Assembly (NCBI GenBank): GCA_016793095.1
Contig: JAEUJQ010000037.1
Span: forward strand, 12,244 to 76,243
Length of the DNA stretch: 64,000 nt
Origin: Myxococcaceae bacterium
Lineage (GTDB): Bacteria > Myxococcota > Myxococcia > Myxococcales > Myxococcaceae
Direction: 5' to 3'
Shown: positions 28,416-46,491 of the stretch, piece after piece
How the letters are laid out: each line of letters opens with the position of its first letter
Numbering within the stretch: position 1 is the first letter of the stretch
Position numbers and translations under genes: made by a program
Notes under the pieces: model-generated
Seen by the model: only the letters and a program-made list of their open reading frames with translations
The model's database searches: none
What the model was told of the DNA's origin: nothing

Positions 28416-28465
28416 GTGCGCGATGCTCGATGCTCCCCTCGTGCGGTGGCCCCGAACCCCGTGGA

Positions 28466-28690: not shown

Positions 28691-28738
28691 GCGGGGGGCA
28701 CTGCGACTGCGGGAGCCTCGAGCGGGTAGGTTCGCCAC

Positions 28739-29050
28739 ATGATGACGCAGACCCTCTTCGAGCGGGCCAGAGCGCTCCAGGCGTCTGGGTTGAGCGCCGA
28801 GTCGCTTCACGCGGCCCTCGTGAAGGAGGGCTACGCCGCAGCAGATGTCGTCGTCATCCTCGGCAGCCTCGGCGCTGGGCCTCAACCCAGACCTGATCCG
28901 ACGGCTGACACTGCTCCGCTCACGGTGGTGAGCCGCATCGCCCGCAGTCGCGTGCTGGTCTGGCTGTTCTTCGTGGCAGTGGCGACGATGTGTGGCGGGG
29001 CGTCATGGGTTGCGTACACGCTGATGGCGGCCTTTCAACGCGGCCGCTGA
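28739..29050 (+). CDS. small hypothetical protein with C-terminal TM segment
   Basis: 103 aa with a C-terminal hydrophobic helix VLVWLFFVAVATM. Confidence 0.35.
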   Translation: MMTQTLFERARALQASGLSAESLHAALVKEGYAAADVVVILGSLGAGPQPRPDPTADTAPLTVVSRIARSRVLVWLFFVAVATMCGGASWVAYTLMAAFQRGR

Positions 29051-29109
29051 GGAGCGGGACGTCTGCACCCTGCGGCTGCCGACTCCCTCGTCTCCAGGGA
29101 GGCCCTCGG

Positions 29110-30249
29110 TCACGGTTCGGCATCGACGCGGGTCTCGACCACGTCTTGCACCGCGCGAGGGACGTCAGAGAGGAAGTCGAGCCCCGTCGCCTGCTCGACG
29201 GAGCGGACCGAGACGCGGAACGCCCGCCAGCTCCCGCTGACCGAGGCGGTGTTGGGCACCACCACCGCGATGACGCGAGTCGAGGTGGTGACCGATGGCG
29301 CCGCTCCCACCTGCCCATCGACGATGACCGCGACCTTGAAGGTCGAGGTCGGCACCGGCACACCCGCTCCGATGGACTGCGGGGTGACGCCGAAGAGCGG
29401 CCCAGCGACGAGAAAGACCGTCTTCCCCAGGCGCGCCTGCGCTCGCGCTTCGTCCTCCAGCGTCGCCCAGGTGCCACCGTTGCTGGCGCGGGTCTGCGGC
29501 ACGACGTTGGTGAAGACGAAGGTGGCGTCGTTGTCGGGGTCGGTGTTGGTGCGGTCGGCGCTGGGGCAGAGGTGGCCGCGCTCGAAGCCGCTGTTGCGGA
29601 AGTCCTCGTCGCGGGCCTGCCCGGCGCTGAGCGGAAGCTGGGCATCGCGGCGGAAGCTCGTCGCGCGCGTCGCAGTCCCGAGCCACGTCGTGTCGAGGCG
29701 CCACGACACCCAGCGCGGCGTCTTGCGGACCGTGTCGTAGGAGACGACGAACTGCGGCTTCACGAGGAGCCAGCGGTCGAGCGCGCCCACCGCGGACGTA
29801 TCGGGGAGGCCGAGGGCGGTGTGGGCGCTGAGGGTGGCTCCAGGGCCGGGCGCAGCCGGCGCGACGACGCCCCCATCGGGCTCGCGGCCCGCATCGGCTC
29901 CGGCGAGCGCCGCGCCCGCGTCGACGGGCCTGCCGGCGTCTGCAGGCGCGGTTTGACCTGCATCGACTGTGAGGCCTGGGGTGCCTGCGTCGGTCGGCGT
30001 GTCGGCCCCCGCGTCGGCGGCGAGCTGCGACGGCGCTCCAGCGTCGTGCACCGGCGAGGGTCCGGCGTCGGCGGGCGCGAGGGGACTGGCGTGTCCTGCG
30101 TCGAACGCATCGACCCGGCGGCCGCTGGTCGAGGTCGCGCGAGGCTCGTCGTCCACGCGAACGACCGCGTCGACGTCATCGACGCCACACGACCACCACG
30201 ACGCACATGTGAGGAGCAGGGCGATGAGACGCCGCGGGAAGGACGGCAC
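29110..30249 (-). CDS. secreted DNA/RNA non-specific endonuclease (NUC / beta-beta-alpha-Me family) lipoprotein
   Basis: Lipobox LLTCASWWSCG and a low-complexity (DAG/PAD) linker. Catalytic motif FERGHLCP with downstream N...FVFTNVVPQ. Confidence 0.8.
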   Translation of the reverse strand: MPSFPRRLIALLLTCASWWSCGVDDVDAVVRVDDEPRATSTSGRRVDAFDAGHASPLAPADAGPSPVHDAGAPSQLAADAGADTPTDAGTPGLTVDAGQTAPADAGRPVDAGAALAGADAGREPDGGVVAPAAPGPGATLSAHTALGLPDTSAVGALDRWLLVKPQFVVSYDTVRKTPRWVSWRLDTTWLGTATRATSFRRDAQLPLSAGQARDEDFRNSGFERGHLCPSADRTNTDPDNDATFVFTNVVPQTRASNGGTWATLEDEARAQARLGKTVFLVAGPLFGVTPQSIGAGVPVPTSTFKVAVIVDGQVGAAPSVTTSTRVIAVVVPNTASVSGSWRAFRVSVRSVEQATGLDFLSDVPRAVQDVVETRVDAEP

Positions 30250-30557
30250 GCCTTCAGGCAGAGCACCCCCTGTGCCCGGGGAAGGGCCGCCGAATCACGG
30301 CGATCGCGACGAGTCAGCCTCACGCTCCGGGTCGCGATGACCCTGTGCGCCTTCTGGAGAGGTTTCCCCGCCCTGGACCGCGGAGCGGCGAGCTCGATGA
30401 CCCACGAGGGCGCGGTGGTGGTCATCGGCCTGTGGTCGAACGCCGGCCGAGGTGCCGTTCACGGACAAGACGCACGACGCGGCGACGGCTGGCGAGTACG
30501 AGGTCCACCGAACGGCGCTCGGCGAGCGGGCGCCCAGGTGTCGAGGAGGTGTTGCGC

Positions 30558-31424
30558 ATGAGACCGGTCGTCTTCTTCTCCCATGGGGCGCGGGTCGCTG
30601 GCGTGCTTCGGGTCCCCGAAGGGCAGGGCCCCTTCCCCGCCATCGTGATGTGCGCGGGCATGACGCTGACGAAAGAGGTGTGGCTGCCCGCCAACGCCGA
30701 GTGGTTGTGCGCGCGCGGCTACGCCACGCTCAACTTCGACTACCGCGGGTTCGGTGACTCCGAGGGCCAGCCTCGCTGCCGGCTGGTGCCGCCGATGCAG
30801 GTCGAAGACGTGCGCTCGGCGTTGACCTTCCTCGAGACCCAGCCAGAGGTGGACCGGGCGCGCCTGGGCCTGTTCGGGGTTTCGCTGGGGGCCTCGGTGG
30901 CGGTGGCGACCGCTGGGGTCGATCGACGCGCGAAGGCGACGGTGGCGGTCGCGGGCCCGATGGACCTGGGCCGCGTGTGGCGCGCGTACCCGGGCTTCGA
31001 GCGCTTCGAGGAGAAGGTGTGGGCTGCCCGGCGCAAGGCCGTGAGCACCGGCGAGGTCAGCACCATCCAGTTGACGCGGCTGCTCGCGAGCGACCCTGAC
31101 ACCTGCGCGAAGATCGAGCGTGACGCGGCGGCGATCCCGGCCTGGAGGCCCGAGCTCACGTTCGAGTCGCTGGTCGATCTCTTCGAGTTCCGCCCCGAGC
31201 AGGTGGCCGCCGACATCAGCCCGCGGGCGGTGATGTTCATCGCGCCCGAGCTCGATCGCCTGATCGCCGGCGCGGAGCTGCCCAGCGCCCATGCGCTCGC
31301 CCGAGAGCCGAAGCGGCTCGTCACCCTGCCGGGCATCAAGCACCACGAGATCTACGGCGAGGGCCGAGGCTTTCCGCTCGTCATGGAAGCCGCAGGGGCG
31401 TTCTTCGAAGAACACCTGCGCTGA
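30558..31424 (+). CDS. alpha/beta hydrolase
   Basis: Nucleophile elbow GVSLGAS and a C-terminal His. Start chosen at MRPVVFFSHG. Confidence 0.65.
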   Translation: MRPVVFFSHGARVAGVLRVPEGQGPFPAIVMCAGMTLTKEVWLPANAEWLCARGYATLNFDYRGFGDSEGQPRCRLVPPMQVEDVRSALTFLETQPEVDRARLGLFGVSLGASVAVATAGVDRRAKATVAVAGPMDLGRVWRAYPGFERFEEKVWAARRKAVSTGEVSTIQLTRLLASDPDTCAKIERDAAAIPAWRPELTFESLVDLFEFRPEQVAADISPRAVMFIAPELDRLIAGAELPSAHALAREPKRLVTLPGIKHHEIYGEGRGFPLVMEAAGAFFEEHLR

Positions 31425-31477
31425 GCGTCGCTGCAGCTGGCGTGGGTCAATCGCCAGAGGTCGGGCATGATGCCCAC

Positions 31478-32725
31478 ATGAGCGACGTCTTCGTGATTGG
31501 AGTGGCGACGACCCCGTTTCGGCGTTGGCCCGAGGCGACCCATCGGCAGCTCGCCCAACAGGCGCTCGACGCCCTCGAACGCGACGCGCAGGTTCCCGCG
31601 AGTCGAGCCGACGCCGTCTGGTTCGGAAACTGCGCGCTGCACGTGTTTGGCCAGGCGACCGCGCGCGGGCAGGTGGTGCTCTCGGGCCCGTTGGCCTCGG
31701 GCCAACTGGAGCCGTCGACGCCGATCATCAACGTCGAGGCGGGGTGCGCGACGGGCAGCTTCGCGCTGCATGGCGCGATTCAAGCGATCGCGAGCGGCGG
31801 CGCGTCGGTCGCCCTCGCCATCGGTGTCGAGAAGACGTTCCTCCCCAACCTGCTCGAGAAGACGAAGGAGCTGTTCGACGGCGCGATGGATCGTCTCACC
31901 CCTGACGCGCCCATGGCCTTCTACGCGCAGGCGGCGGCCCAGCATGGGCTCGAGTTCGCGCCCACGCCCGATCGCATCGCCCTGCTCGACGTGTGCGCGC
32001 TCCAGGCGCGGTGGCACATGAAGACGTATGGAACGACGGCCGAGCACCTCGCGGCCTCGGCCTCGAAGAACCACACGCACGGAGCGCTCAACCCGAACGC
32101 TCAGCACCAGAAGCCGCGCTCCATCGCCGAGGTGCTGGCGGACAAGCCAGTGCTGTCCCCGCTGACGCGCTCGATGTGCGCACCCATCTCCGACGGCGCC
32201 GCAGCGGTGATGGTGGCCTCGGCCGACACCGTGAAGGGCCTGCCAGACGCCGTCCGTGCGCGCGCGGTGAAGGTGGTCGGGCTCGAGCTCGCCACCGGGC
32301 GCTACCGCGCGCTGGGCGAGCCGTCGGTCACGTCCCGCTGCGCCCAGCGGCTCTTCGCCAGGACCCACCGCAGGCCCGACCAGGTCGACGTCGCCGAGGT
32401 GCACGACGCCACCAGCTTCTCGGAGATCAGCACGGTGGAGGCGCTGGGGTTCTGCGGCCCGGGTGAAGGTGGGCCCTGGGTCGCGAGCGGCCGGGCGAGC
32501 CTCGGAGGCGAGCGGCCCATCAACCTCTCGGGCGGGTTGGTCTCGAAGGGCCACCCGCTGGCGGCGAGCGGCCTCGCGATGGTCCACGAGCTGGTGACTC
32601 AGCTCCGCCAGGAGGCGGGCAATCGCCAGGCGCGCTCGACCCGACTCGCGCTCTGGCAGAACGCGGGAGGGCTGACGGGCTTCGACGAGGCGGCCTGCGC
32701 GGTGGGCCTGCTCGAGCGGGCCTGA
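31478..32725 (+). CDS. thiolase-family protein (SCP-x/lipid-transfer-type thiolase)
   Basis: Active-site region NVEAGCATGS, a C-terminal GHPLAASG, and a 416-aa length. Confidence 0.8.
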   Translation: MSDVFVIGVATTPFRRWPEATHRQLAQQALDALERDAQVPASRADAVWFGNCALHVFGQATARGQVVLSGPLASGQLEPSTPIINVEAGCATGSFALHGAIQAIASGGASVALAIGVEKTFLPNLLEKTKELFDGAMDRLTPDAPMAFYAQAAAQHGLEFAPTPDRIALLDVCALQARWHMKTYGTTAEHLAASASKNHTHGALNPNAQHQKPRSIAEVLADKPVLSPLTRSMCAPISDGAAAVMVASADTVKGLPDAVRARAVKVVGLELATGRYRALGEPSVTSRCAQRLFARTHRRPDQVDVAEVHDATSFSEISTVEALGFCGPGEGGPWVASGRASLGGERPINLSGGLVSKGHPLAASGLAMVHELVTQLRQEAGNRQARSTRLALWQNAGGLTGFDEAACAVGLLERA

Positions 32726-32750
32726 CTCCCGGCTTCCGCCTCTGCCGGGC

Positions 32751-34361
32751 GTGCCTGTTGTCGTCGAGAAGACGGCCCTCGTCTGCGATGCTCGCCCGGT
32801 GGCCGACCCCGTTCAGCTGGTCCTCGAGAGCCGCCGCTCCCACGCGCTTCGTCTCGCCGACGCAGCCGACTACGGCACCTTCCCGAAGACGCTCCCGCCG
32901 GTCGCCGCTGCGATGGGCTTCGCCGACCACGCCTCGTACCTCTCCATCCTCATCGAGGCGGGCAACGAGCTGACGCGCGGCGCGGGGAACAAGCGGCCGT
33001 ACGCGATGCTGGCGCTCCTCGACGGCTACGCGCTCGCGAAGCACGTCCACGGCGTTCCAGTCGCGAAGGGCAAGGCGCTCGCGCCGAAGGCCACGCTCAC
33101 CCGGTTCCTCCGCGCCTCGGCGCGCTCCGGCCCGGCGCTGCTGGCGAGCCCCCACGCCGCCACCGCCCGCGCGCTCATCGAGTCGCTCGGCCCCGACGAC
33201 GACACCGCGCGCGAGGTGATGGCCAACGCGTTCGCCTGCGGCGTGCTGCTGTTCCAGTACGAGCACGGCGCCGCGCTGCCCGGCTTCGAGGCGCTCGCTC
33301 CCGCGCGGGCGAAGCAGCAGAAGGGCGCGGCGAAGACGGTGGTGAAGCACGTCGCCGCGCTCCCGAAGGAGCTCATCGGCGGAGTGATGGCGGCGCCCCA
33401 TGACGACGCGCCCAGGCTCGTCCTGGCCGACTGGCTCACCGAGCAGGCAGACCCCCGGGGAGAGTTCATCCAGGTGCAGTGCGCGCTCGGCCGCGCCCTC
33501 TTCGGCGCCGAAGGGAAGTGGGTGCTCGGCGGCCGCAAGGCGCTGCCGTTCGAGACGCGCGAACAGCTCGAGGCACGCGAGCAGGAGCTGCTCAAGGCGC
33601 ACGAGAAGCAGTGGATCGCGCCCATTCGCAAGGTGGTGCGGCAGTGGGGCTTCAGGCGCGGCTTCGTGAACCACGTCATCACCGACCTCGCGACGTTCGC
33701 GGCCGCCACTGACAGCGCCCTGGCCGAGACGCCGCTCGAGTCCGCGAAGCTCACCGGCTTCAAGGCGACGCACCTGCGGGCGCTGTGCAAGGCCGCGCCC
33801 CACGCGACGTTGGAGACGCTCAACCTCGGCATGAACCGCCTCAATGACGGCGCCGCGGCGCTCTTCGCGTCGCCGTTCCTCTCGAAGGTGACGGGCCTCA
33901 ACCTCGAGGGCAACCCGTTGGGCGACGCGTGCCTGCGCGCGCTCGCCTCGCCGCGCTCCATCCTGCGCCTCGGGCTGTACAACGGCGAGTTCGACGACAC
34001 CGCGTTCTCGTCGCTCGCAAAGGCGCCGTGGTGGGGGTCGCTCACCGGCCTCTCGCTCGCCCGCTGCCAGGCGCTGACGCCGCGAGCGCTCGAGACGGTG
34101 AACGCCGCGGCGGAGCTCGACTGGCTCGTCCTCGACCTCCCCGGCCTGACGGACGCGGACGTCGTGGGCGTCGCGAAGGCGCACCCGAAGCTGAAGCAGC
34201 TCTCCTTCTCCCGCGCGCAGGTCAGCGAGCGCGCTGTCGAGGCCGTCATCGCCGCGCTGCCGACGCTCGGCTTCCTCGAGGTACCGCGCTCGCTCCCGGA
34301 GGCCGCACAGGAACGCCTCCGAGCGCGCTTCGCCGGCACGCGGTGGACGCAGCTCATGTGA
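32751..34361 (+). CDS. TIGR02996-type repeat-companion domain protein with leucine-rich repeats
   Basis: PRLVLADWLTEQADPRGEFIQVQCAL motif, then RNI-like LRRs (LNLGMNRLND..LNLEGNPLGD). GTG start. Confidence 0.65.
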   Translation: MPVVVEKTALVCDARPVADPVQLVLESRRSHALRLADAADYGTFPKTLPPVAAAMGFADHASYLSILIEAGNELTRGAGNKRPYAMLALLDGYALAKHVHGVPVAKGKALAPKATLTRFLRASARSGPALLASPHAATARALIESLGPDDDTAREVMANAFACGVLLFQYEHGAALPGFEALAPARAKQQKGAAKTVVKHVAALPKELIGGVMAAPHDDAPRLVLADWLTEQADPRGEFIQVQCALGRALFGAEGKWVLGGRKALPFETREQLEAREQELLKAHEKQWIAPIRKVVRQWGFRRGFVNHVITDLATFAAATDSALAETPLESAKLTGFKATHLRALCKAAPHATLETLNLGMNRLNDGAAALFASPFLSKVTGLNLEGNPLGDACLRALASPRSILRLGLYNGEFDDTAFSSLAKAPWWGSLTGLSLARCQALTPRALETVNAAAELDWLVLDLPGLTDADVVGVAKAHPKLKQLSFSRAQVSERAVEAVIAALPTLGFLEVPRSLPEAAQERLRARFAGTRWTQLM

Positions 34362-34581
34362 GGGTGAGCGCGCAGCACTCGGGCGGGACGGGTGCCAGCC
34401 CCGGACGAGCCGCCTGACGTGAAAGACAACACGCTGGGACGCCAATCGGTGATGCAGTTCGCCGACACCGTCATGGGCAAGGCCACGCTCACGGCGGCCA
34501 GGGTGTTCGGCGGCCCGGCGGTCGTGGCGACGTCGGTTTCCGCAGCGGGGAGGTCCCCGGGTCGGGCAGAGTCGCTCCTGG

Positions 34582-35316
34582 ATGCGCCGCGTGCTTCCCC
34601 TCCTCGTGACCCTGACTGCCTGCAGCGGAGGAATGGTCGCGCCCGACTCCGGGGCGCCGGATGCGGGTGCTTCCCCGATGGATGCAGGCGCTGGAGCCGT
34701 TGACGCAGGCGTGGTGGACGCTGGGACCGTTGACGCAGGCGCGGTGGACGCTGGGACCGTCGACGCTGGCGCGCTGGATGCTGGCGCCGTCGATGCCGGC
34801 GCTGTCGATGCTGGCGCCGTGGACGCCGGCGTGATGGGCCCGTCCTGCTCCGGTCTGCCCGACGTCGTCACCTTCGACTTCACGTGGAGCGACTCGAGCA
34901 GCGTGCTCACGATGCAAGCAGGTGGCGTGCGCGCCGACACCATCGCCGTGGGCCGCATCACGGTGCCCACCACCGCTGCCATGCCGTTGGCGCAACCGGG
35001 GCAGGTGCGCTTCGTCGAGTACATCGACGGCCAGGCGCAGCGGCAGATGACGCTCTCACGGTTCCCGTGCGACTTCCGCGGCTTCGTGCCCGGTGGCGTC
35101 AGCCGCACCGACCCGACCGGCGTGAGCTTCCCCGTCGTCTGGTCCAACGACATCAACACGCAGCTCATCTTCCGGCTCTCACCGCCCGGCGCCGTCGTCC
35201 TTCCGCCGGGCACCACCTGGTACGTCAGCCTGCGCAACGTCGACTGGGTCACTGGCGCGCCCTCGTGCGGCACGGCCACCTGCAACGGGCTCTTCAACTT
35301 CTTCGCCCCGCGATGA
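34582..35316 (+). CDS. lipoprotein with (VDAGx)n repeat linker
   Basis: Lipobox LVTLTACSGG. Pentapeptide repeats AVDAG/TVDAG x~12 from a 15-bp tandem DNA repeat at 34690-34850. Cys-containing C-terminal domain. Confidence 0.55.
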   Translation: MRRVLPLLVTLTACSGGMVAPDSGAPDAGASPMDAGAGAVDAGVVDAGTVDAGAVDAGTVDAGALDAGAVDAGAVDAGAVDAGVMGPSCSGLPDVVTFDFTWSDSSSVLTMQAGGVRADTIAVGRITVPTTAAMPLAQPGQVRFVEYIDGQAQRQMTLSRFPCDFRGFVPGGVSRTDPTGVSFPVVWSNDINTQLIFRLSPPGAVVLPPGTTWYVSLRNVDWVTGAPSCGTATCNGLFNFFAPR

Positions 35317-35319
35317 CGC

Positions 35320-36621
35320 TCACCCTTCGAGGGTGACGGCGAAGCGCAGCACCAGGCCGGGCAGGGGCTCGATGAGGTCGCCCACCTCGAGCGTTGCGCG
35401 CGGCGTCGCCCGGCCGTTCACCCGCAGCAGCGCGACGCCGAGGTCGTCGAACACCACCCAGCCTTCGTCGCGACGCACGATGCGGCACAGCTGCTCGGGC
35501 ACCTTCGGGCCACGCACGATGACCTGGCTCGCCGTCGCCGCGCCGAGCCGCGTGTCTGCCGCGAGCCGCATGCGGAACCCGGGGTACACCGAGACGCCTT
35601 CAGGGCACGACACCAGCTCCAGGCACGCGCTGCGGGTGCGCTCGACGAAGCCGCTCCACTCGAGCCGGGGCAGCCGCTCACGCGCCCGTGCCGCCACGGC
35701 CTTCGGCAGCTCGAGGTCGTTCACCGCGAGGCCCAGCGACAGGTGCTCGAGCGTGTTCGCGAAGGCGGCCTCTCCCACCAGCTCGACGACGGCCGGCACC
35801 ACGAGCTCGGGCGGCGGCTCCTTCGGCCAGCCCGGCGTCCCGCGCGGCGCCAGCACGCGCTTCGCCGGTGTGCCCACCACGTAGTCGATGGTGAGGGACG
35901 AGAGCGTGCGCGCCACGGGCAGCGTGCCCAGCTGCGCGAGGTGCCAGAAGAGCCCCGGAGCGCCGACGACGGCGTGACGCGCGACCCGCACCGAGGTCAG
36001 CAGGCCCGCGGCGCTGAAGCTCGGCTGCACCGCCTGCGTGCGCGCACTCTCGGAGAGCGGGCCGAGCACCTTGAACCTCTCGGCCTCGACCGAGCGCCGG
36101 TCACTCGCCAGCCAGTCGCCGAGTGGGTCGCCGTGCTCCTTCAGGAAGTCCATGTAGACCGCCAGCGTGGCGGCGTCGTCCGGCCGCACGGCCAGCGCTG
36201 CCTCGAGCCCCTCGTGCCGCGCGGTCTGGAGCGGCCGCTCCCGCACCGCCAACACCAGGCCTGTCGAGAAGACGAGGTGGTCGCCGTCGGCGAGCGCGTA
36301 CGAGAGGGCGAGGTCGAGCGTCTGCCCGTTGAGCGAGCAGGCCACCGGCAGACCCTTCTCGGTCCATGCCTTCGGTTCGCCACGCAGGCGCCCGATGAGC
36401 AGGTCGGCGCCCTGGAGCACGTCGACCTGCAGCCGGCAGCGCGACGAGCGGCCCACCCGCAGGGGCGCCTCCTCCGTCAACTGGAAGCGCGCCCCCGGGC
36501 GCATGGCGTCGGGAGCATCGGGAGGCAACGCGACGACCTCTGCGAACACCGGGGAATGGTGGCACGGATCGGGCTCGACGGGCGTCGGCGACGCGGCGGC
36601 GTCCGTGCACGACCAGGGCAT
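35320..36621 (-). CDS. FHA-domain protein containing a TIGR02996-like motif
   Basis: Only the 3' ~1.3 kb of the 787-aa ORF looks genuine. It has FHA-like segments at both ends and VYMDFLKEHGDPLGDWL in the middle. The start is within a few bp of 36621. Confidence 0.5.
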   Translation of the reverse strand: MPWSCTDAAASPTPVEPDPCHHSPVFAEVVALPPDAPDAMRPGARFQLTEEAPLRVGRSSRCRLQVDVLQGADLLIGRLRGEPKAWTEKGLPVACSLNGQTLDLALSYALADGDHLVFSTGLVLAVRERPLQTARHEGLEAALAVRPDDAATLAVYMDFLKEHGDPLGDWLASDRRSVEAERFKVLGPLSESARTQAVQPSFSAAGLLTSVRVARHAVVGAPGLFWHLAQLGTLPVARTLSSLTIDYVVGTPAKRVLAPRGTPGWPKEPPPELVVPAVVELVGEAAFANTLEHLSLGLAVNDLELPKAVAARARERLPRLEWSGFVERTRSACLELVSCPEGVSVYPGFRMRLAADTRLGAATASQVIVRGPKVPEQLCRIVRRDEGWVVFDDLGVALLRVNGRATPRATLEVGDLIEPLPGLVLRFAVTLEG

Positions 36622-36732
36622 GCGCACCCACGGTTGTCTGCCGTACCTCGGGGGGTGTCGCGAGCGAGGTGCCGTCGCACGCACTCCTGACGTATGAGGC
36701 TGCGCCGCAAGCTCTTTCCTGAAGGGGGACCG

Positions 36733-37794
36733 ATGACCCGCTCCGTGGCCGTGTGGCTCCTGCTGTTTCCCGTGGTGGCGTTGGCGCAAGCGCGGACGCT
36801 GGCGCGCGTGGTGTCGGTCGAGGGCGCGACCTTCACGCTCGAGGTGCTGGAAGGCGGCGTCTCGGACACTGAGGCGCTCGAGCTGTGGACACCCGCGGGC
36901 AAGAAGCCGGTGACGATGACGGTGCCAGGCAGCGGGTGGATCGAGCGGGGGAGAAGCGCGAGTGGGCTGTCGTGTCGCGGAGGAACCCCCACGCCGCGCG
37001 CGGTGCTGACGAAGCCTGGCCAGGTGACGTCGTGGGTCGCGGCCCAGGCAGCGGTCGCCGCGTTTCCGCCGAAGACGCTGGCGCGCGTGGTGTCCGTCGA
37101 GGGCGCGACCGTGACGCTCGAGGCCGTGGTGGGGTCGCTCACCAACGGCATGGCGCTGGACCTGGTGACGGCCGAGGGTGCGTCGCCCGTCACCGTCACG
37201 CTCCCGTCGAACCTCGACCTGGTGCTGAAAGGCGACCGCGTGAAGGGCGTCACCATCGCGGGAGGTCGGGTCACCGCCGGAGCCATCGTCGCGGACCGGG
37301 CGCGCTTCACCACCCTCGCCGAGGCCTCGGGCGTCGCGGGTCCACCGGCGCCCCCGCCTTCCGCCGCAGCGCCGGGGCTCGTGCCGAACCCGGCCGCGTG
37401 TGTCTTCGCGCCGGCTGAGCTCAAGGCGGCGCTCGGCTTCGAAGTGGGAGCAGGTGAAGGCACCGAAGCGACGTTCTCGACGGGCACCAGGCTGTCGTGC
37501 CTCTACAAGGGCTCGACCGGCGGCGTCTGGGTCAACCGGACGGTGATGTCGACGGGCGCTCCGGCCACCAACGCCGAGAGCTCGCGGAAGCTGCTGGCCG
37601 GCCGGCTCGAGCCCATTGCCGGAGATGCCGACGGGGCCGCGTGGCAGGTCGGCCAGGGCGACAACACCGACGTCACCCTGCACTACTGGCGGGGCAACAC
37701 CGGCACCGAGGTGCGCGTCAGCGGCGTCGACCAGAAGAACCGAGCGGCCGTCTCGGCGATGCGGCGCAACGTGCTGAAGCTGCGTCGGCCGTGA
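36733..37794 (+). CDS. secreted protein with internal duplication
   Basis: Signal peptide MTRSVAVWLLLFPVVALAQA. TLARVVSVEGAT(F/V)TLE...TVTLPS appears twice. Confidence 0.5.
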   Translation: MTRSVAVWLLLFPVVALAQARTLARVVSVEGATFTLEVLEGGVSDTEALELWTPAGKKPVTMTVPGSGWIERGRSASGLSCRGGTPTPRAVLTKPGQVTSWVAAQAAVAAFPPKTLARVVSVEGATVTLEAVVGSLTNGMALDLVTAEGASPVTVTLPSNLDLVLKGDRVKGVTIAGGRVTAGAIVADRARFTTLAEASGVAGPPAPPPSAAAPGLVPNPAACVFAPAELKAALGFEVGAGEGTEATFSTGTRLSCLYKGSTGGVWVNRTVMSTGAPATNAESSRKLLAGRLEPIAGDADGAAWQVGQGDNTDVTLHYWRGNTGTEVRVSGVDQKNRAAVSAMRRNVLKLRRP

Positions 37795-37837
37795 TCGACC
37801 GGCCCAGACGCGACGACGTCGCCGAACAGCTGTCGGA

Positions 37838-38653
37838 TCAGGACGCGACGGGCGTCGGTGGAGTGCTCACCGCCGCCTCGGGCGACGGCGTCACCGTGGG
37901 GGTCGCGGCGGGCAGCGGGCGCTGGTCTTCCTTCAGCGTCGCCACGAAGGCGTCGTGCACCTGCTGCGCGTGTTCGGCCGCCGTCTCCTCCGTCCACCCC
38001 TTCGTGTCGATGGGCGGCAGCACGTCCACCTCGAGCGTCATCGGCTTGAACTCGAGCATCGAGCCCTTCTCCCAGTTCTTGTGCGCGCCGTGCACCACCA
38101 CGGGCACCACGGGGAAGCCGGTGGCGATGGCCATGTGCACGAAGCCCTTCTTGAAGGGCAGCAGGCGCCCGTCACGGCTGCGCGTGCCCTCGGGGAAGAT
38201 CCAGATGCCGAGCCGGTGCTTGTTCATGAAGACCGCCATGTCCTTCAGGGTCTCGACGGCCTTGCCGGTGTTGGAGCGGTCGATGAGCAGGTGCCCCGAC
38301 ATCCACGCGAGCTGCCCGTAGAAGGGCACCTTGACGATCTCCTTCTTGAAGACGCCGCAGCCGCCGTACGGGCACATCCAGATGCCCGAGAAGGCGTCGA
38401 GCGTGGACGCGTGGTTCATCACGAAGATGGCAGGCATCGAGCCCTTGAGGCGCTCCCAGCCGCGCACCACCGGCGTCACGCCCGCGAGGAAGACGATGGT
38501 GCGGCCGACCACGTGGCCCCACCAGTTGCAGACGTAGATGCGGCCCACGCGCCACGGCAGCAGCACGATGACGGCCACCATCACGATGAGGGTCATCACC
38601 ACCATCACGGTGAAGCCGATGACGAAACGGAGAATCGAGACGACCTTGGACAT
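37838..38653 (-). CDS. plsC: 1-acyl-sn-glycerol-3-phosphate acyltransferase (lysophospholipid acyltransferase)
   Basis: N-terminal TM, HX4D motif VMNHASTLD, and FPEGTRS. Confidence 0.8.
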   Translation of the reverse strand: MSKVVSILRFVIGFTVMVVMTLIVMVAVIVLLPWRVGRIYVCNWWGHVVGRTIVFLAGVTPVVRGWERLKGSMPAIFVMNHASTLDAFSGIWMCPYGGCGVFKKEIVKVPFYGQLAWMSGHLLIDRSNTGKAVETLKDMAVFMNKHRLGIWIFPEGTRSRDGRLLPFKKGFVHMAIATGFPVVPVVVHGAHKNWEKGSMLEFKPMTLEVDVLPPIDTKGWTEETAAEHAQQVHDAFVATLKEDQRPLPAATPTVTPSPEAAVSTPPTPVAS

Positions 38654-38724
38654 TGCGAGGCACTGTCCTCGCCCTTCGTCATGGCCGCGTCACGGAGTTT
38701 CGGTGAGCGCCCTGCCGCGTCGCG

Positions 38725-39471
38725 CTACTCGCCCAGGTACGCCTTGCGAATGTCTTCGCTGGCGAGCAGCTCCTGCCCGGTGCCCTGCATGACGAGCGTG
38801 CCGGTCTCGAGCACGTAGGCCCAGGCCGCGAGCCCGAGCGCGAGGTGCGCGTTCTGCTCGACGAGGAGGATGGAGGTGCCCGTCGCGTTCACGTCACGCA
38901 GGATGCGGAAGATGGTCTGCGTCACCTGCGGCGCGAGGCCCAGCGAGGGCTCGTCGAGGAGCAGCAGCGTCGGCCGCGACATGAGCGCGCGCGAGATGGC
39001 CAGCATCTGCTGCTCTCCGCCCGACAGTGTGCCCGCATACTGGTCGCGGCGCTCCTTCAGCCGAGGGAAGAGGCCGAAGCACTTCTCGAGGTCCTTCGCG
39101 ATGTCGTCGCGATCCCTCCGCAGCCAGGCGCCGAGGTCGAGGTTCTCCTGCACGGTGAGGTTCGGGAAGATGCCGCGGCCCTCGGGCGCGTGGGCCAGGC
39201 CCTTCGCCACCACGAGGTTGGCCTTGAGGCCGGTGATGTCCGCCCCGCCGAGCCTGATGGAGCCCTTCGCGGGCTTCACGAGCCCGCTCACCGCGCGCAG
39301 CGTCGACGTCTTGCCCGCGCCGTTCGCGCCGATGAGGGCCACCACCTCGCCCTTGCCCACCGACAGGCTGATGCCCTTGAGCGCGCCGATGGCGCCGTAG
39401 CTGACGACGAGGTCGTTCACCTCGAGCAGCGCCTCGCGGGGCGGCCGGGTGCCGCGCGCCTCAGGCTGCAT
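38725..39471 (-). CDS. livF: branched-chain amino acid ABC transporter ATP-binding protein LivF
   Basis: GANGAGKTS, LSGGEQQMLAI, LLLLDEPSLGLAP, and a C-terminal AYLGE. Confidence 0.9.
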   Translation of the reverse strand: MQPEARGTRPPREALLEVNDLVVSYGAIGALKGISLSVGKGEVVALIGANGAGKTSTLRAVSGLVKPAKGSIRLGGADITGLKANLVVAKGLAHAPEGRGIFPNLTVQENLDLGAWLRRDRDDIAKDLEKCFGLFPRLKERRDQYAGTLSGGEQQMLAISRALMSRPTLLLLDEPSLGLAPQVTQTIFRILRDVNATGTSILLVEQNAHLALGLAAWAYVLETGTLVMQGTGQELLASEDIRKAYLGE

Positions 39472-40339
39472 GGACGGGTGCCTCTCCGAGGTAGGCCTCG
39501 ACGACCTTCGGGTCCTTCCGCACGCTGGCCGGGTCGCCCACCGCGATGGTCTCGCCGTGGTCGAGCACGGTGAGGTGCTCGCAGATGCCCATCACCAGCT
39601 TCATGTCGTGCTCGATGACGAGGATGCCGAGCGAGAAGCGGTCTCTCAGCTGGCGGATGAGCACCATGAGGTCGGCCTTCTCGCGGGTGTTCATGCCGGC
39701 GGCCGGCTCGTCGAGCAGCAGCACGTTCGGCCTGGTACCGAGGGCGCGCGCCACCTCGAGGCGGCGCTGCTCGCCGTAGGGCAGGCTCGAGGCCAGCTCC
39801 TCGCGACGGTGCGAGAGGCCCATCACGCCGAGCAGCTCGTCGGCCTTCGCGGTGAGCTCGGCCTCCTCTTCGAGGAACCCGCTCGTGCGCAGGAACGCGC
39901 GCCACCAGTCGCGGTAGTTGTTGGTGGCGTCGAGGGCCGCGCCGGCCGCCCGCTGCACCGCGCCGCCCCGCTTGAGCGCCTGCACCCGCGCCGCGTCGAA
40001 CCACGGCTTCGTCGTGGGCAGAATCGCGATGCGCACGTTGTCGAGGGCGGTGAGCTGCTTGAAGAGGCGGATGTTCTGGAACGTGCGCGCCACCCCGAGG
40101 CGGTTGATCTGGAACGGGCGCTTGCCGTTGACGCGCTCCGAGCCGATCAGCACGTCGCCTTCGGTGGGCGGGTAGACGCCGGTGAGGGCGTTGAAGGCCG
40201 TCGTCTTGCCCGCGCCGTTGGGGCCGATGAGGCCCTTCAGGTCGCCGCGCGAGAGGGTGAGCGAGAAGTCGGTGAGCGCCTTCAGCCCGCCGAAGCGGAT
40301 GGAGACCTTCTTCGCCTCGAGCAAGGGGCCGCCCGTCAT
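39461..40339 (-). CDS. livG: branched-chain amino acid ABC transporter ATP-binding protein LivG
   Basis: GPNGAGKTT, LPYGEQRRLEVARAL, LLLDEPAAGMN, IEHDMKLVMGI, AYLGE. Overlaps livF by 11 bp. Confidence 0.9.
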   Translation of the reverse strand: MTGGPLLEAKKVSIRFGGLKALTDFSLTLSRGDLKGLIGPNGAGKTTAFNALTGVYPPTEGDVLIGSERVNGKRPFQINRLGVARTFQNIRLFKQLTALDNVRIAILPTTKPWFDAARVQALKRGGAVQRAAGAALDATNNYRDWWRAFLRTSGFLEEEAELTAKADELLGVMGLSHRREELASSLPYGEQRRLEVARALGTRPNVLLLDEPAAGMNTREKADLMVLIRQLRDRFSLGILVIEHDMKLVMGICEHLTVLDHGETIAVGDPASVRKDPKVVEAYLGEAPVHAA

Positions 40340-40370
40340 CGGGAGCGGACTCCTACACCAGAAGCCGCCC

Positions 40371-41399
40371 TCACAGCCTGCGAAACGCAGCGGCGTCGGC
40401 GCACTCGGAGTGAGACCGGCCGGCGGCGCTCCAGTCGAGGTCCACGTGCGCGGCGGTGCCGGCCTCGAGCGAGAACTCGCCCAGCTTCACCCAGGCGGTG
40501 TCGCCCCACTCGGTGCCGAGGTACTGGCTCACCACGAAGGGCCCGAGCCGCTCGCCGTCGCGCGAGGTGACGAAGTACTCGGCGTGGTCGTCGCGGTTCT
40601 CCGAGCGGTAGAAGCTGACCCACACCTCGTAGCGGCCCGCACGGGTGATGGTGGGCGTCCAGCGCGCGGCCTCGGCGCCGTCGCGGGGCAGGGGCGCGTG
40701 GTTGCTGACGTACCAGTAGTGGCCCTGGTGGCCCTTGTTCGGGTCGGTGGTGTCGAGCCAGCCGGCGCCGGCGCGGGTGAAGGCGCCGTTGGCGCGCACC
40801 ACGTCGTCGACGGTGAAGGCGTCGGCCCCGAGAGGGAAAGGCGGGGCGTTGGGGCCACGGTAGCCGACGCTGACGTAGGTGGGCTTGAAGGACGCCTCGA
40901 GCACCTTCGCCTCGACGTTCGAGAAGGGCCCGCGGCCGGCGGCCGTGACGGTGCGCACCCGGTAGTAGCGCGTCAGGCGCTCCGCCGCGCCGAAGGAGAG
41001 GCTCTGGTGCACGCGGTCGAGACGCGTCGAGGGCGCCGCGACGCGAAACGTGCGCACGCCAGCGTCGAAGGCGGGGTCGGCGCTCTCCTGCACCTCGTAG
41101 CGCAGGGCCACGGCGCCGCGCACCGGGTCCGACGCGCTGGGACGCCAGTCGACGCCGAACGGCTGCGCGCGGAAGACGGGGGCGCCGAGGGGCTCGAGCA
41201 CCGGCGCGCCAGGGAGCGACCCTGCGTCACGCTCCAGAGGACCAGCGTCTGGCTCGTCTTCGTCACCGGCGTCGCCGTCATCGAGCCCGCCCGCGTCGAG
41301 GCCGCCGTCGCGAGGCGGGTCATCGACGTCGAGCGCACCCAGGCCGCAGGCCGACAGGGCGAGGAGGAGCAGCAGCAGTCCACGGAGGAGCGGCGTCAT
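40371..41399 (-). CDS. hypothetical lipoprotein
   Basis: MTPLLRGLLLLLLALSACG lipobox, an Asp/Gly-rich linker, and a C-terminal domain with GHQGHYWYV. Confidence 0.5.
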   Translation of the reverse strand: MTPLLRGLLLLLLALSACGLGALDVDDPPRDGGLDAGGLDDGDAGDEDEPDAGPLERDAGSLPGAPVLEPLGAPVFRAQPFGVDWRPSASDPVRGAVALRYEVQESADPAFDAGVRTFRVAAPSTRLDRVHQSLSFGAAERLTRYYRVRTVTAAGRGPFSNVEAKVLEASFKPTYVSVGYRGPNAPPFPLGADAFTVDDVVRANGAFTRAGAGWLDTTDPNKGHQGHYWYVSNHAPLPRDGAEAARWTPTITRAGRYEVWVSFYRSENRDDHAEYFVTSRDGERLGPFVVSQYLGTEWGDTAWVKLGEFSLEAGTAAHVDLDWSAAGRSHSECADAAAFRRL

Positions 41400-41650
41400 G
41401 TCCAGGTTGTCGCGCCCGCAGCGCGCCTGGTGACGCCCTTCTCGGCGCGCGACAAGCGACTGCCACCCGCCGTGCTCCTCGGGAATCTGAGGGCGGTGTA
41501 ACCCCAGGCCGTCGCTGCTGATTGCGCCAGCGCAAGTCGTGCCCGACGCCGTCGCACGACACACGACAGCCGCTGGACGACTCTGCCGAGGTCCCCGCCC
41601 CCGCGCAGATTCAGTTGCCGACCGCGAGCGACTCTCCCAGTGTCGCGCTG

Positions 41651-42778
41651 ATGAACCTCTCCCAGACGGCCGCGAGCCCGGCCGACCTCGAGCGCCTGCG
41701 CGCAGCCCTGCGACGCGCGAACGGCACGCGGCAGGTGCGGCTCCTGACCGAGGCGCAGGTGGAAGAGACGGTCGCGCGTGCGCTCACCTCGTCAGACGGC
41801 CTCGCCGTGCTGCACGGAGGCGAGGCGAACGATGGGACCCAACGCACGACGTTGTGTCTGGCGGTGAGAGAGGGCGACTTCGTGACGGTGGGCATCGGCC
41901 TGTCCGGCGCGGCCGGCGCGGGTCCCGGGCGCACGTGGAAGACGTTGCAGCCGTGGAGCCGCACGGACGCCTCGAAGAACACGCCTCGCCTGCAGGCCTG
42001 GGCCCGCGCGAAGGCACCTGACCGCGTTCGGCTCCGCGTGGTTGCAGGCGGTCGCGCCCGACCCGCAGCGCCCGACGACTCCGCGCGACTCCTCGCGGCT
42101 GTCCTCGCCTCGCCGGCCGACGACGCGCCGCGCGCGGTGTACGCCGACTGGCTGCTGGAGCGGGGGGACCCGCACGGCGAGTTCATCTCGCTGCAGCTCG
42201 CCCTCGCCCGCCGGGCCAACGCGGCGAAGCAGGCGCGCGCGGACGCGCTCCTCGCTCAGCACCGCCTCGCCTGGACCGAGGCGCTGCGCCAGGTGTCGCT
42301 GAAGCAGCGCTTCGAGCGGGGCTTCGTCTTCGAGCTCGAGCTGAAGGCCACGACGTTCGTGCTCGAGGCCGCGCGGCTCTTCTCGCTGGCCCCGCTCACC
42401 TCCGTCATTCTCCGAGCGGCCGAGCTGCCGGTGCTGAGGAAGGTGGTCGCCCTGCCCCAGCTCGCCCGACTGACGCACCTCGGGCTCGACCGCACGGTTG
42501 GTGACGCAGGCGCGCGGCTGCTCGCGGGCGCGCCGGGCCTGCGGCAGCTCGAGGCGCTGAGCTGCGCCGGCTGCGGCTTCACCGCCGAGGGGTACGAGGC
42601 CGTCTTGAGCGCGATGCCTGCGCTGAAGACGCTGAGGGTGCGGGCCGTCGACGACGCGCTGGCTGCGCTGGTGTTGCCTCGCCGGAAGCTGGTGCTCCAG
42701 GCGGCGCGCCCGGCCGCCACCCCACTGGTGCGCCAGCTCGCCCGCGAAGGCCGCCTCGAGCTCCAGCCCCGCGCCTGA
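41651..42778 (+). CDS. TIGR02996-type repeat-companion domain protein with LRRs
   Basis: PRAVYADWLLERGDPHGEFISLQLAL motif followed by LRR-like segments. Start chosen at the internal Met. Confidence 0.6.
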   Translation: MNLSQTAASPADLERLRAALRRANGTRQVRLLTEAQVEETVARALTSSDGLAVLHGGEANDGTQRTTLCLAVREGDFVTVGIGLSGAAGAGPGRTWKTLQPWSRTDASKNTPRLQAWARAKAPDRVRLRVVAGGRARPAAPDDSARLLAAVLASPADDAPRAVYADWLLERGDPHGEFISLQLALARRANAAKQARADALLAQHRLAWTEALRQVSLKQRFERGFVFELELKATTFVLEAARLFSLAPLTSVILRAAELPVLRKVVALPQLARLTHLGLDRTVGDAGARLLAGAPGLRQLEALSCAGCGFTAEGYEAVLSAMPALKTLRVRAVDDALAALVLPRRKLVLQAARPAATPLVRQLAREGRLELQPRA

Positions 42779-42781
42779 CGG

Positions 42782-42991
42782 TCACAGCGCGAGCAGCAGG
42801 CCCGCCGTCAGCAGCCCCACGAAGCCGGTGAAGGCCCAGCGGTGGACCCGCGCGGCGTGGCGCAGCTCCATGAACTCGAGGCCGACGGCGACGGCCTTGA
42901 GCGCCGCGAGCACGAGCGCCAGCCACAGGCGGCCGCTCGCCACGGACGCGCAGGTGAGGCCAACGAGGAGGGCCCAGGTCGCCGCGCGCAT
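42782..42991 (-). CDS. norF: small 2-TM membrane protein, NorF / bacterial CoxIV-like
   Basis: About 70 aa with two hydrophobic helices. Start ATG overlaps the norE stop (ATGA), and it is last in the nor operon. Confidence 0.45.
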   Translation of the reverse strand: MRAATWALLVGLTCASVASGRLWLALVLAALKAVAVGLEFMELRHAARVHRWAFTGFVGLLTAGLLLAL

Positions 42992-43557
42992 CACGCCCTC
43001 ACGAAGAACAACGGGAAGAGGAAGAACCACACCACGTCACACAGGTGCCAGAAGAGGGCCGCGCCGGCATAGGCGGTCTCGACGTCGTCGAAGACGGCGC
43101 GCCGCAGCGAGACGAAGAGCAACAGCGCCACACCCACCACCACGTGGACGAAGTGGAAGCCGGTGGCCAGCAGGTACGCGTCCCAGAAGTCCGAGGAGCC
43201 GAGCCGGTGACCAGCGCCGAGGTGCGCGCTGCAGTCGACGGCCTTCACCACGAGGAACGCGGCGCCCACGCCCGCGGCGGCCAGCAGCCACCGGCGCGTG
43301 TCGTCCAGCCGCGTCTGGCGGAGCCGGTGCACCCCCTGAGCGGCGAGCGCCCCGCTCGTGATGAGCAGCAGCGTCAACGTGAGCCCGAGCGCCGGGCTCA
43401 GCGCCCCCTGGCCGGCCGCGAATTCGTCAGGCTGGGCGCGTCGCACGCCCGCCACCAGCGCGAAGACGATCGCGAAGGTGACGAGCTCGAGGCCGACGAT
43501 GAGCCAGAGCAGAACGCCTCCCGGTGGGTCGTCGAGCGCGCGCGCCTTCATCGTCAT
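42991..43557 (-). CDS. norE: cytochrome oxidase subunit III-like protein NorE
   Basis: 188 aa with 5 TM segments, CoxIII-like (HLGAGHRLG..FHFVHVV). Overlaps norD by 4 bp. Confidence 0.65.
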   Translation of the reverse strand: MTMKARALDDPPGGVLLWLIVGLELVTFAIVFALVAGVRRAQPDEFAAGQGALSPALGLTLTLLLITSGALAAQGVHRLRQTRLDDTRRWLLAAAGVGAAFLVVKAVDCSAHLGAGHRLGSSDFWDAYLLATGFHFVHVVVGVALLLFVSLRRAVFDDVETAYAGAALFWHLCDVVWFFLFPLFFVRA

Positions 43558-45458
43558 CGGCGCAGCGCGGTGCTCGTCACCTTCGCGAGCGCGTTCACCA
43601 GGTCATCGGGCCTCGACACCACCGACGCGCGGCCGTGCCCGAACATCGACGGCAGCCAGGCCCGCGCGGCGGGGTCCACCGCGAGCGCGTGCGTCACCAC
43701 CCCCGCGCCCTGCGCGTCCAGCACGGCCCGGTGCACGTCGGCCACCCCGTAGCGGCCCTCGTAGCGGTCGACGTCGCTGGGCTTGCCGTCCGAGACGAGC
43801 AGCAGCAGCTTCTGCTTCGCCCCGCACGCCAGCAGCTCGCTCGTCGCGTGGCGGATGGCGGGCCCGATGCGCGTGAAGCCGTGCGGCTCGAGGCTGGCGA
43901 GGCGCTGGGCGCCGACGCTCCACGGCTCGGGGAAGCCCTTGACGACGAGGAAGCGGCAGTCGCGGCGCGTCTGGCTGCAGAAGGCCGCCACCGCCACCTC
44001 GTCGAAGAGCCCCTCGAGCGCGTCGCCGAGCGCGAGCACCGCTTCCTTCTCGACGTCGAGCACCCGGCGGTTGGCGACCCACGCGTCGGTGGACAGCGAG
44101 GCGTCGAGCAGCACCAGCACTGCGGTGTCGCGCGAGTGGCGGCGGCGCGTCGCGTACAGGCGGCTCTCGTTGCACTCACCGGCCCGCAGCGCACCGTAGC
44201 GCGCCACCAGCGCGTCGAGGTCGACGTCGGTGCCGGTGCGCTGCCGCAGCTTCCACGCGCGCGAGGCCTCGAGCTGCTCGAAGACGGCCCGCAGGCCCTG
44301 GGTGGTGCGGGTGAGGCGCGCGCGCAGGGCGCTCACCTGGGCGTCCGCGCCGGGCACCACGTCCACCGCGCGGGTCGTCAGCCGGCACCACGCCCGCTTC
44401 CACGAGCGCGTCGTCTCGTCCCACTCGTCGTAGAGCGCCTCGGCCGGGCCGGCGAGCGAGTCGTCCACCTCGCCCACGGCGCCGTCGAGCAGCACGTCAG
44501 CCTGGTAGAGGCTGCCCGCGCGCTGGTGGCTGCGCACCACCTGCCGCAGGTCGAGCTCGTCGAGCGCCTTCTGGTGCGCCGCCAGCTCGTCGTCGCCGTC
44601 GATGCGCTTGCTGCCGCCCTTGTACTCCTCGAGCGTGTGCACCTTCTCGAAGCTGTGCACGAGCGGGTTCTCCTGCAGCTGCTGCTCGGGCTCCTGCACG
44701 CGCTCGGCGCGGGTGGCCTTCTTCTTCTTCAGCTCGGTGCCGCCGGGGAGCGCGCGCTCGTCGTCCGTCGCGGGCTTCACCGAGGCGGGCTTCTGGGGCG
44801 GCGGCAGCAGGGCGCTCCAGAAGGGCACCGGCGGCACGGTGAAGGCCCTCGAGAACCAGCCCCGGCGCGCGGACGGGAGGTCGACCACGCCGCGCTCGAG
44901 CGCACTCCGGGCCCAGCTCCACGCGTCGGCGGCGAGCGTCGCGTCTTCGGTGACACCCAGCGTCCGGCGCACCAGCGCTTCGAGGGCGTGGGCGCGGGCG
45001 TCGTCTGGCGGAGGCGCGCGGCGGGCGCTCGCGGCGGCGCGCTCGAGGGCCGTCAGGGTCTTCTCGAGCGGGGGGAAGGACTCGACGACGGCCGCGCGGA
45101 CGCGAGGCGCGAGCAGGGCGAGGCCGGCGAGCGAGGTCTCGGCCCGGTCGGGCACCAGCCGCGCTGCGGTGACGGCCCAGACGACGTGCACCACGAGGGC
45201 GTCGCGGTTGAGGACCTGCGTCGGGGCGAAGTCGACGACGCGCGGGAGGAACAGCGCCTCTCCAGCGACGGCGGGTGCGTCGTCGGTGAGGGTGACGGTG
45301 ACGGCGCGGCCGGTGAGGAGCCGCGCGAGGGCCTCGAGGCGGGCGCGCTCGGGTTCGACCTCGACGCGCCGGGCGAGCACCTCGTCGGGAGGCGCGCGCG
45401 AGAGGAGCCGGCGGGTGCCGCTCCACGCGACGCCGAAGAGCGCCTCATCCCACGACAT
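43554..45458 (-). CDS. norD: nitric oxide reductase activation protein NorD (VWA domain)
   Basis: 634 aa with a C-terminal von Willebrand A domain (VLVLLDASLS..LLLLVSDGKPSD). Confidence 0.75.
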   Translation of the reverse strand: MSWDEALFGVAWSGTRRLLSRAPPDEVLARRVEVEPERARLEALARLLTGRAVTVTLTDDAPAVAGEALFLPRVVDFAPTQVLNRDALVVHVVWAVTAARLVPDRAETSLAGLALLAPRVRAAVVESFPPLEKTLTALERAAASARRAPPPDDARAHALEALVRRTLGVTEDATLAADAWSWARSALERGVVDLPSARRGWFSRAFTVPPVPFWSALLPPPQKPASVKPATDDERALPGGTELKKKKATRAERVQEPEQQLQENPLVHSFEKVHTLEEYKGGSKRIDGDDELAAHQKALDELDLRQVVRSHQRAGSLYQADVLLDGAVGEVDDSLAGPAEALYDEWDETTRSWKRAWCRLTTRAVDVVPGADAQVSALRARLTRTTQGLRAVFEQLEASRAWKLRQRTGTDVDLDALVARYGALRAGECNESRLYATRRRHSRDTAVLVLLDASLSTDAWVANRRVLDVEKEAVLALGDALEGLFDEVAVAAFCSQTRRDCRFLVVKGFPEPWSVGAQRLASLEPHGFTRIGPAIRHATSELLACGAKQKLLLLVSDGKPSDVDRYEGRYGVADVHRAVLDAQGAGVVTHALAVDPAARAWLPSMFGHGRASVVSRPDDLVNALAKVTSTALRR

Positions 45459-45717
45459 GAGCGCCTCGTCGGTCCTCAGGCAGGGCCGGCCTCACCGCAC
45501 TGCGGCTGTCACGCTGGGTGGGGCGGTGTGCCGACGACAGCCTGCCGTCCACGCCCGTCACTCCGGAGCTCGAGCAGGCAGAGCGAAGGCTCGTCGGCGG
45601 GCAGGCCACCCGTGACGGTCCGCACTTCGAGGAGCGTCGGCGCGACGCCGCCTGCCCGCACGAGCCCGGGCTGGAGGAGGCGAGCCGTCGCGTCGTCGAA
45701 GCGGCCGGTCGCATGAC

Positions 45718-46488: not shown

Positions 46489-46491
46489 GGC

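Follow-up and report, generated by a model that had tools for sequence, protein, structure and literature searches.

Three TIGR02996-type genes within 10 kb of a Myxococcaceae contig encode modular proteins and were probably brought together in a single lineage

We analysed 64,000 nucleotides of DNA from a Myxococcaceae bacterium (GenBank assembly GCA_016793095.1, contig JAEUJQ010000037.1, positions 12,244 to 76,243), here called the window, in which three genes of the TIGR02996 'repeat-companion' type, A, B and C, lie within 10 kb. We found that the three proteins belong to one domain family and join a shared module to different domains, that their genes do not form an operon and that their clustering is not conserved. 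With moderate confidence we read A, B and C as independent genes for cytoplasmic, non-enzymatic modular binding proteins that cluster by lineage-specific juxtaposition. The most likely function is that of cytoplasmic protein-binding adaptors; since the literature gives TIGR02996 no function, we infer this mechanism from the domain types alone.

Results

A and C are members of the TIGR02996 family

Because the window is 72% G+C, lists of its open reading frames (ORFs) are full of spurious frames, and genes were chosen by the G+C content of third codon positions (GC3). The proteins were then compared with TIGR02996 (rpt_mate_G_obs, 'repeat-companion domain'), a 45-residue NCBIfam model with a curated cut-off of 29.05 bits. 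Both A (57.9 bits, E 6e-16) and C (57.6 bits, E 7.5e-16) scored above the cut-off. B remained below it at 21.2 bits (E 1.8e-4, profile positions 2-32 of 45), and its homology is backed by other evidence given below. An earlier note on this DNA, made from its letters alone, had described the signature followed by leucine-rich repeats (LRRs) like those of ribonuclease inhibitor (RNI) in A and C, and this description holds, the repeats being supported by a structure model in A and by homology in C. The features of A are as follows.

32751 to 34361, + strand: gene A, 536 residues; N-terminal helical domain, TIGR02996 module, eight LRRs
32808 to 33266, + strand: N-terminal all-helical domain, residues 20-172, helices in the AlphaFold model
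33369 to 33488, + strand: TIGR02996 match, residues 207-246
33366 to 33707, + strand: extended conserved module, residues 206-319, from model secondary structure and family columns
33735 to 34340, + strand: eight LRR units of 24-27 residues each, CC/GALA/RNI-like

The GenBank model of A (P0002, 'TIGR02996 domain-containing protein') has an identical sequence and 380 residues; its start is 156 codons too late and omits window positions 32751-33218. We conclude this because GC3 is 0.94 across the entire 536-codon ORF, because the orthologues (P0001 and P0003-P0014, 46-79% identity) cover 94-100% of the 536 residues, and because the AlphaFold model has a per-residue confidence (pLDDT) above 90 for most of residues 20-180 (89.4 overall). 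The start remains uncertain within the first ~19 codons, the annotated GTG being at 32751 and the orthologues beginning near residue 19.

In the model of A the helical domain (20-172) is followed by three short helices that hold the TIGR02996 signature (206-250), a disordered loop, a long helix (270-292), a beta-hairpin (298-312, with the sequence FRRGF), a short helix (313-319) and eight strand/helix units (329-530) with a period of 24-27 residues. A fold search with this model returned F-box/LRR (FBXL) and GALA proteins as the closest solved structures. The C-terminal part is thus an LRR solenoid, with strand/helix units in the 24-29-residue range and fold matches to solved LRR proteins; Foldseek against PDB gave nothing past generic LRR matches. 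Pfam LRR_6 (PF13516) scored 18.2 bits in A, under its cut-off of 23.4, and many homologues do carry PF13516. The N-terminal domain had no match in Pfam or NCBIfam scans, and an orthologue profile of it against PDB gave nothing convincing (best E 0.0045, an unrelated protein).

Gene C has a similar layout with a different N-terminal domain.

41651 to 42778, + strand: gene C, 375 residues; N-terminal alpha/beta domain, TIGR02996 module, about four LRRs
41651 to 42055, + strand: N-terminal domain with the motif HGGEANDGTQRTTLCLA...G(A/S)GPGRTW..LQPWS, from the orthologue alignment
42077 to 42208, + strand: TIGR02996 match
42383 to 42685, + strand: LRR region (limits approximate), aligning with the hairpin and first LRRs of A

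The ORF of C lies within 41522-42778 and has a GC3 of 0.90. GenBank holds a 100% identical protein of 375 residues (P0142, 'TIGR02996 domain-containing protein') starting at 41651, in agreement with the start given earlier. C orthologues are 360-404 residues long, and at 45-85% identity they very strongly conserve the N-terminal motif listed above. This domain had no Pfam or NCBIfam match and no PDB sequence match better than E 0.27; it may be a novel small domain. LRR_6 had no match in C and is present in remoter relatives of the C branch (P0153-P0156). Both proteins behave as the family name would have it, A carrying the module together with eight LRRs and C being homologous to A through the first of them.

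The conserved unit extends beyond the TIGR02996 model

The signature motif of the family is PDDDxPRLVYADWLxExGDPRGEFI, and in A the near-invariant family columns within it are P216, D218, D219, R222, A226, D227, L229, I240 and Q243. Near-invariant columns are also found beyond the signature, at L280, W288, F301, R303, G304 and F305. Because invariant columns run on to W288 and F301-F305, the conserved unit is about 110 residues and not 45: a hairpin like that of tetratricopeptide repeats (TPRs), then a long helix, and lastly an FxRGF hairpin directly next to the first LRR.

When a profile of the signature was searched against 1.84 billion representative proteins, 40,676 clusters were found at E<=1e-3 and 21,217 at E<=1e-10, which puts the family at about 40,000 clusters at 50% identity. 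The named matches stem from Myxococcota and Planctomycetota, the taxonomic range that had been proposed. No paper was found that mentions TIGR02996 or 'repeat-companion domain', so that the description of a family with no assigned function also stands. A and C are routine members of this very large, already catalogued family: at about 58 bits followed by LRRs they resemble most members, and both bear the TIGR02996 name in GenBank already, whereas B is only 'hypothetical' there. They differ in the position of the domain. In most members it is at the extreme N-terminus, starting in the first 30 residues in 102 of the 189 family proteins collected and occupying residues 1-55 in 85 of the 89 single-copy proteins among the top 148 representatives, but here it follows lineage-specific domains of 140-200 residues. 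The representative library also contains giant proteins (P0190-P0204) of 1,600-3,700 residues with 5 to 13 TIGR02996-like hairpins, spaced irregularly at 100-1,200 residues; the few with 3,000 residues or more have as many as 13 matched copies (12 in P0190), which is unusual beside the otherwise single, N-terminal domain.

The signature region shows weak likeness to TPRs. A signature-only profile against PDB found only the TPR protein PA4667 (E 0.004), and when 57 signature segments were compared with Pfam, the families TPR_19, TPR_15, TPR_20 and TPR_16 matched 1 to 7 of the 57 members, with no curated threshold reached. Unlike TPR repeats, TIGR02996 is a single hairpin with a strongly conserved acidic motif of its own, and from sequence it is best described as a solitary TPR-like hairpin. 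The FBXL proteins at the top of the fold search prompted us to consider a relationship to the F-box, and sequence searches gave it no support: no F-box protein appeared in the PDB profile search at E<=10, and the F-box families PF00646 and PF12937 were absent from the Pfam matches of the 57 segments at E<=10. The whole-model matches of A to FBXL proteins arise because of the LRRs. With respect to CC-LRR and GALA-LRR proteins (FBXL proteins such as SKP2 and FBXL2, and the Ralstonia GALA/RipG effectors), A and C differ in having no F-box, secretion signal or link to a eukaryotic host, and the LRR domain of A has just eight units.

B carries a degenerate copy of the module between two beta-sandwiches

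35320 to 36621, - strand: gene B, 433 residues; beta-sandwich, TIGR02996-like helices, hairpin, short alpha/beta region, FHA
36241 to 36546, - strand: N-terminal beta-sandwich, residues 26-127, from model strands; FHA-like by GRS motif and topology
35983 to 36213, - strand: TIGR02996-like helices, helix and beta-hairpin, residues 137-213; HMM match at residues 136-166
35674 to 35979, - strand: short alpha/beta region, residues 215-316, in the place of the LRRs
35329 to 35643, - strand: C-terminal FHA-fold domain, residues 327-431, with non-canonical pocket residues

B, whose minus-strand orientation the earlier note had not given, is identical to GenBank P0114 ('hypothetical protein JNJ54_14510', 433 residues). 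Its AlphaFold model has a pLDDT of 87 and shows the parts of the module in an order equivalent to that in A. An alternative start at a GTG (36547-36549, minus strand) gives 409 residues with the N-terminus (M)FAEVVALPP. The start MFAEVVA is common to most B orthologues and aligns to the GTG at 36549, and the 24 extra residues that result from starting at the annotated ATG (36621) lack conservation and were modelled with low pLDDT. The Pfam scan of B found no family that spans the whole protein.

The third copy of the signature, which the earlier note had called degenerate, was recovered in B. B has only the first two-thirds of it, and the copy is degenerate yet real, because 22 of 23 B orthologues matched TIGR02996 at E<0.1 (best 9.8e-7), because an independent profile of 57 family members containing no B-type sequences found B at E 1.2e-5, and because BLASTP aligned C with B over 165 residues (29% identity, E 9e-6), extending to about B residue 264. 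Searched at E<=10 against all six reading frames of the window, the same profile gave no match beyond A, B and C. In residues 215-316 of B strands and helices alternate in the model, and this region is presumed to be LRR-like.

FHA-like domains had been proposed to flank this core. The C-terminal one was borne out: the model has the FHA beta-sandwich fold, and a PDB search found the FHA domain of Slr1951 (E 8.7e-4). Pfam matches place this domain at residues 357-418 of B. FHA (PF00498) itself scored 14.3 bits (residues 358-417), under its cut-off of 20.7, and among the 23 orthologues FHA matched 11 at E<0.1 (best 7.3e-6) and Yop-YscD_cpl matched 14. The canonical FHA phosphothreonine pocket consists of the Arg of GR, the Ser and His of SxxH and the Asn of NG. 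When the domain was aligned to Slr1951, GR was replaced by G-S/A, the Ser by Pro and the His by Leu, and NG alone was retained. Since the pocket Arg, Ser and His are lost, this domain probably binds independently of phosphorylation.

The N-terminal sandwich has marginal sequence support as an FHA domain. Pfam FHA matched 2 of 15 members (best E 0.09), and FHA proteins were absent from a PDB sequence search with this domain. As we read the alignment, it would keep GR and lack SxxH. The model suggests an FHA-like sandwich, an assignment of type that is uncertain. B differs from FHA proteins such as GarA, EmbR and FhaA in falling under the Pfam cut-off, in a C-terminal pocket that has lost Arg, Ser and His, and in placing FHA-type domains at both ends of a TIGR02996/LRR-like core, an architecture that we did not find described.

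A, B and C are related through the module only

A and C aligned at 32% identity over 180 residues (E 7e-17), the alignment beginning at the motif. The word 'paralogous', which had been applied to the three, thus fits the shared module only; the N-terminal domains of A and C are unrelated. A and C are each 45-53% identical to their own orthologues in other families. Because the 32% between A and C is lower than this, the A/C duplication is old and not local.

No enzymatic domain was found in the three proteins by Pfam or NCBIfam scans, and reading their N-termini revealed no hydrophobic segment resembling a signal peptide. Their domain types are those of protein-interaction modules, as the earlier note had supposed.

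The cluster consists of three transcription units and is not conserved

A lies 25 bp downstream of a thiolase-like gene, itself preceded by one for an alpha/beta hydrolase. B and a lipoprotein-like gene (34582-35316, + strand) converge. C diverges from its Golvesin_C neighbour on one side, and on the other it converges with a COX4-like gene, the first of a nitric-oxide-reductase cluster. The interval between B and C holds genes for two ABC ATPases, an acyltransferase and a putative secreted protein. By gene layout A, B and C belong to three different transcription units, and they form neither an operon nor a conserved cluster. A promoter and terminator scan of 30000-43200 was uninformative: it gave no promoters and 2 terminator-like sites, where 3.5 would be expected.

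We compared the window with loci of relatives (L002, L004, L006, L007, L009, L010, L012, L014, L018, L024 and L025/L026). The trio and its order are kept only in L006, the sole close relative found, at 78% (A), 87% (B) and 85% (C) identity. In L004 we found the backbone without A and C: the COX4-like gene, both ABC genes (ABC2, ABC1), the acyltransferase, B, an AAA_16 ATPase and an amine oxidase, at 55-90% identity. Likewise, B is present and A and C are absent in L010, L012, L018 and L024. Orthologues of A (L002, Archangiaceae) and of C (L007 and L009, from other metagenome-assembled genomes) stand alone in unrelated neighbourhoods, each the only TIGR02996 gene within loci of 12-21 kb. Two differences set the window apart from L004: the AAA_16 gene and B are separated by a block of 6.9 kb, and ABC2 and the COX4-like gene by the Golvesin_C gene and C.

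28416 to 35319, no strand: lineage-specific block with the endonuclease, hydrolase, thiolase-like gene, A and lipoprotein gene; missing between B and AAA_16 in L004
24825 to 28415, - strand: AAA_16 (STAND-like) ATPase, 1196 residues, Pfam AAA_16, C-terminal TPR-like region

A scan of species-representative genomes with A found one distant locus only, which indicates that the source genome or its near relatives are missing among the representatives scanned. A metagenome scan with the B family returned 8 loci, mostly short. Origin from a mobile element was considered and rejected: searches for homologues of A, B and C on plasmids and in phages found none, and the window has 0 tRNA genes.

By these comparisons the AAA_16 gene is the ancestral neighbour of B, and B together with this 1196-residue AAA_16/TPR ATPase might form a signalling pair, with B as an adaptor that recruits targets to the ATPase or regulates it and with A and C as bystanders. 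The orthologous ATPase gene of L004, whose product is 59% identical along its entire length, has the same orientation as the B orthologue and begins 33 bp past it. L012 and L024 have the pair with nothing but a small ClpP-like gene in between; in the window the two genes share the minus strand and are about 6.9 kb from each other. The ATPase is the one recurrent neighbour of B. However, it does not adjoin B in L010, L014 or L025/L026, and in the window and its lineage the two are split by the 6.9-kb block. We regard such a pair as possible but doubtful.

It is unlikely that the clustering reflects a joint role of A, B and C in one signalling or protein-interaction system. What would fit such a system is that the window has its three copies all within 10 kb, and that L006 keeps the same gene order. 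The separate transcription units with unrelated genes between them, the backbone that lacks A and C in L004 and the other loci, and the solitary A and C orthologues argue against it. The earlier reading of the clustering as a hint of a signalling or protein-interaction system is therefore not supported.

Discussion

Lineage-specific juxtaposition of independent genes is the explanation that we favour, and the proteins might work as follows. The three share one ancient module of about 110 residues, made up of the TPR-like hairpin, long helix and FxRGF hairpin described above, which leads directly into a CC/GALA-type LRR solenoid and probably serves as its N-terminal neck or cap. To it each protein adds lineage-specific recognition domains: a helical one in A, an alpha/beta domain with an HGGEANDG motif in C, and in B beta-sandwiches at both ends, of which at least the C-terminal has an FHA fold. 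Each protein could then be a bivalent adaptor, the concave face of the LRRs holding one protein and the terminal domain or domains another. The 10-kb proximity would have arisen when an A-carrying and a C-carrying block came to flank an ancestral B locus in this lineage.

Several points weigh against this reading. L006, the sole close relative, keeps all three genes, which could have been co-selected within this lineage. The copy count covers the 64-kb window only, which leaves the chance of three copies within 10 kb without a figure. A search of the literature found no experiment or publication that gives TIGR02996 a function. Finally, the acidic motif (DDD..R..ADW..GDPRGEF) is very strongly conserved across about 40,000 clusters. 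This is more conservation than a passive cap should require and suggests that the members may have a specific ligand or partner in common.

We also considered a role for A, B and C in conflict or defence, as intracellular LRR sensors that diversify in the manner of NLR LRRs. The family is very large and rich in paralogues, the LRR fold resembles the LRRs of NLR proteins and RNI, and a non-specific endonuclease gene lies in the A block. On the other side, a PADLOC scan gave no match for A, B, C or four neighbours, bar a weak TPR match in the AAA_16 protein; A, B and C contain no effector or NTPase domain; their architecture is stable among orthologues at 50-87% identity; and phage or plasmid homologues were not found. 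A sensor role is by this evidence very unlikely, and with PADLOC returning no matches the defence-system hypothesis was rejected.

There is a similarly slim chance that TIGR02996 is a docking domain for a common hub, F-box-like in its logic and not in its ancestry, as the conserved acidic motif might suggest. If so, thousands of planctomycete and myxobacterial LRR, WD40 and HEAT proteins, A and C among them, would be interchangeable substrate receptors of one machinery, with B an FHA-gated variant. That the domain is the outright bacterial counterpart of the F-box, an N-terminal docking domain plugging LRR, WD40 and HEAT receptors into such a hub, is the least probable reading, given the absence of F-box proteins and families from the searches described above.

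With the cluster read as a lineage-specific juxtaposition, its significance as it stands is little. A by-product is the mostly unannotated subfamily with FHA-fold domains around a TIGR02996-like core; only the architecture of B, and the fact that it is sometimes linked to a STAND-like ATPase, are mildly new. The size of the family and its invariant acidic motif make TIGR02996 a reasonable target for a first biochemical study.

Other features of the neighbourhood

The lipoprotein-like gene convergent with B (34582-35316, + strand) encodes a protein beginning MRRVLPLLVTLTACSGG..., which matched no family; it is kept beside A in L006. An imperfect 15/30-bp tandem repeat within it (34689-34831) codes for (V/A)DAGA units. 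The Golvesin_C-domain protein that adjoins C is encoded at 40371-41564 on the minus strand, and neither it nor the DNA/RNA non-specific endonuclease of the A-carrying block (29110-30249, - strand, PF01223, E 1.5e-46) is found at the corresponding position in L004.

The AAA_16 protein has a proline-rich N-terminal half with a 102-bp tandem repeat in two copies (27632-27833). Just upstream of its gene is an intergenic 66-bp tandem repeat of 3.3 copies with 98% identity (28465-28683), which forms the left edge of the block separating AAA_16 from B. It is followed by a small ORF (28739-29050, + strand) for 103 residues with a hydrophobic C-terminus.

The nitric-oxide-reductase-like cluster with which C converges occupies 42782-48644 on the minus strand and encodes COX4_pro and COX3-like subunits, a VWA protein (NorD-like), a CbbQ/NorQ ATPase, a COX1-family NorB-like subunit and a dihaem cytochrome c. 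After it, on the opposite strand, is a multicopper oxidase/cytochrome c fusion (48490-50163). On the other side of the window, 18672-21272 on the minus strand encodes an 866-residue protein with RCC1-like repeats, ASH/Cep192-type Ig domains and a Dictyostelium-type repeat, a eukaryote-like architecture.

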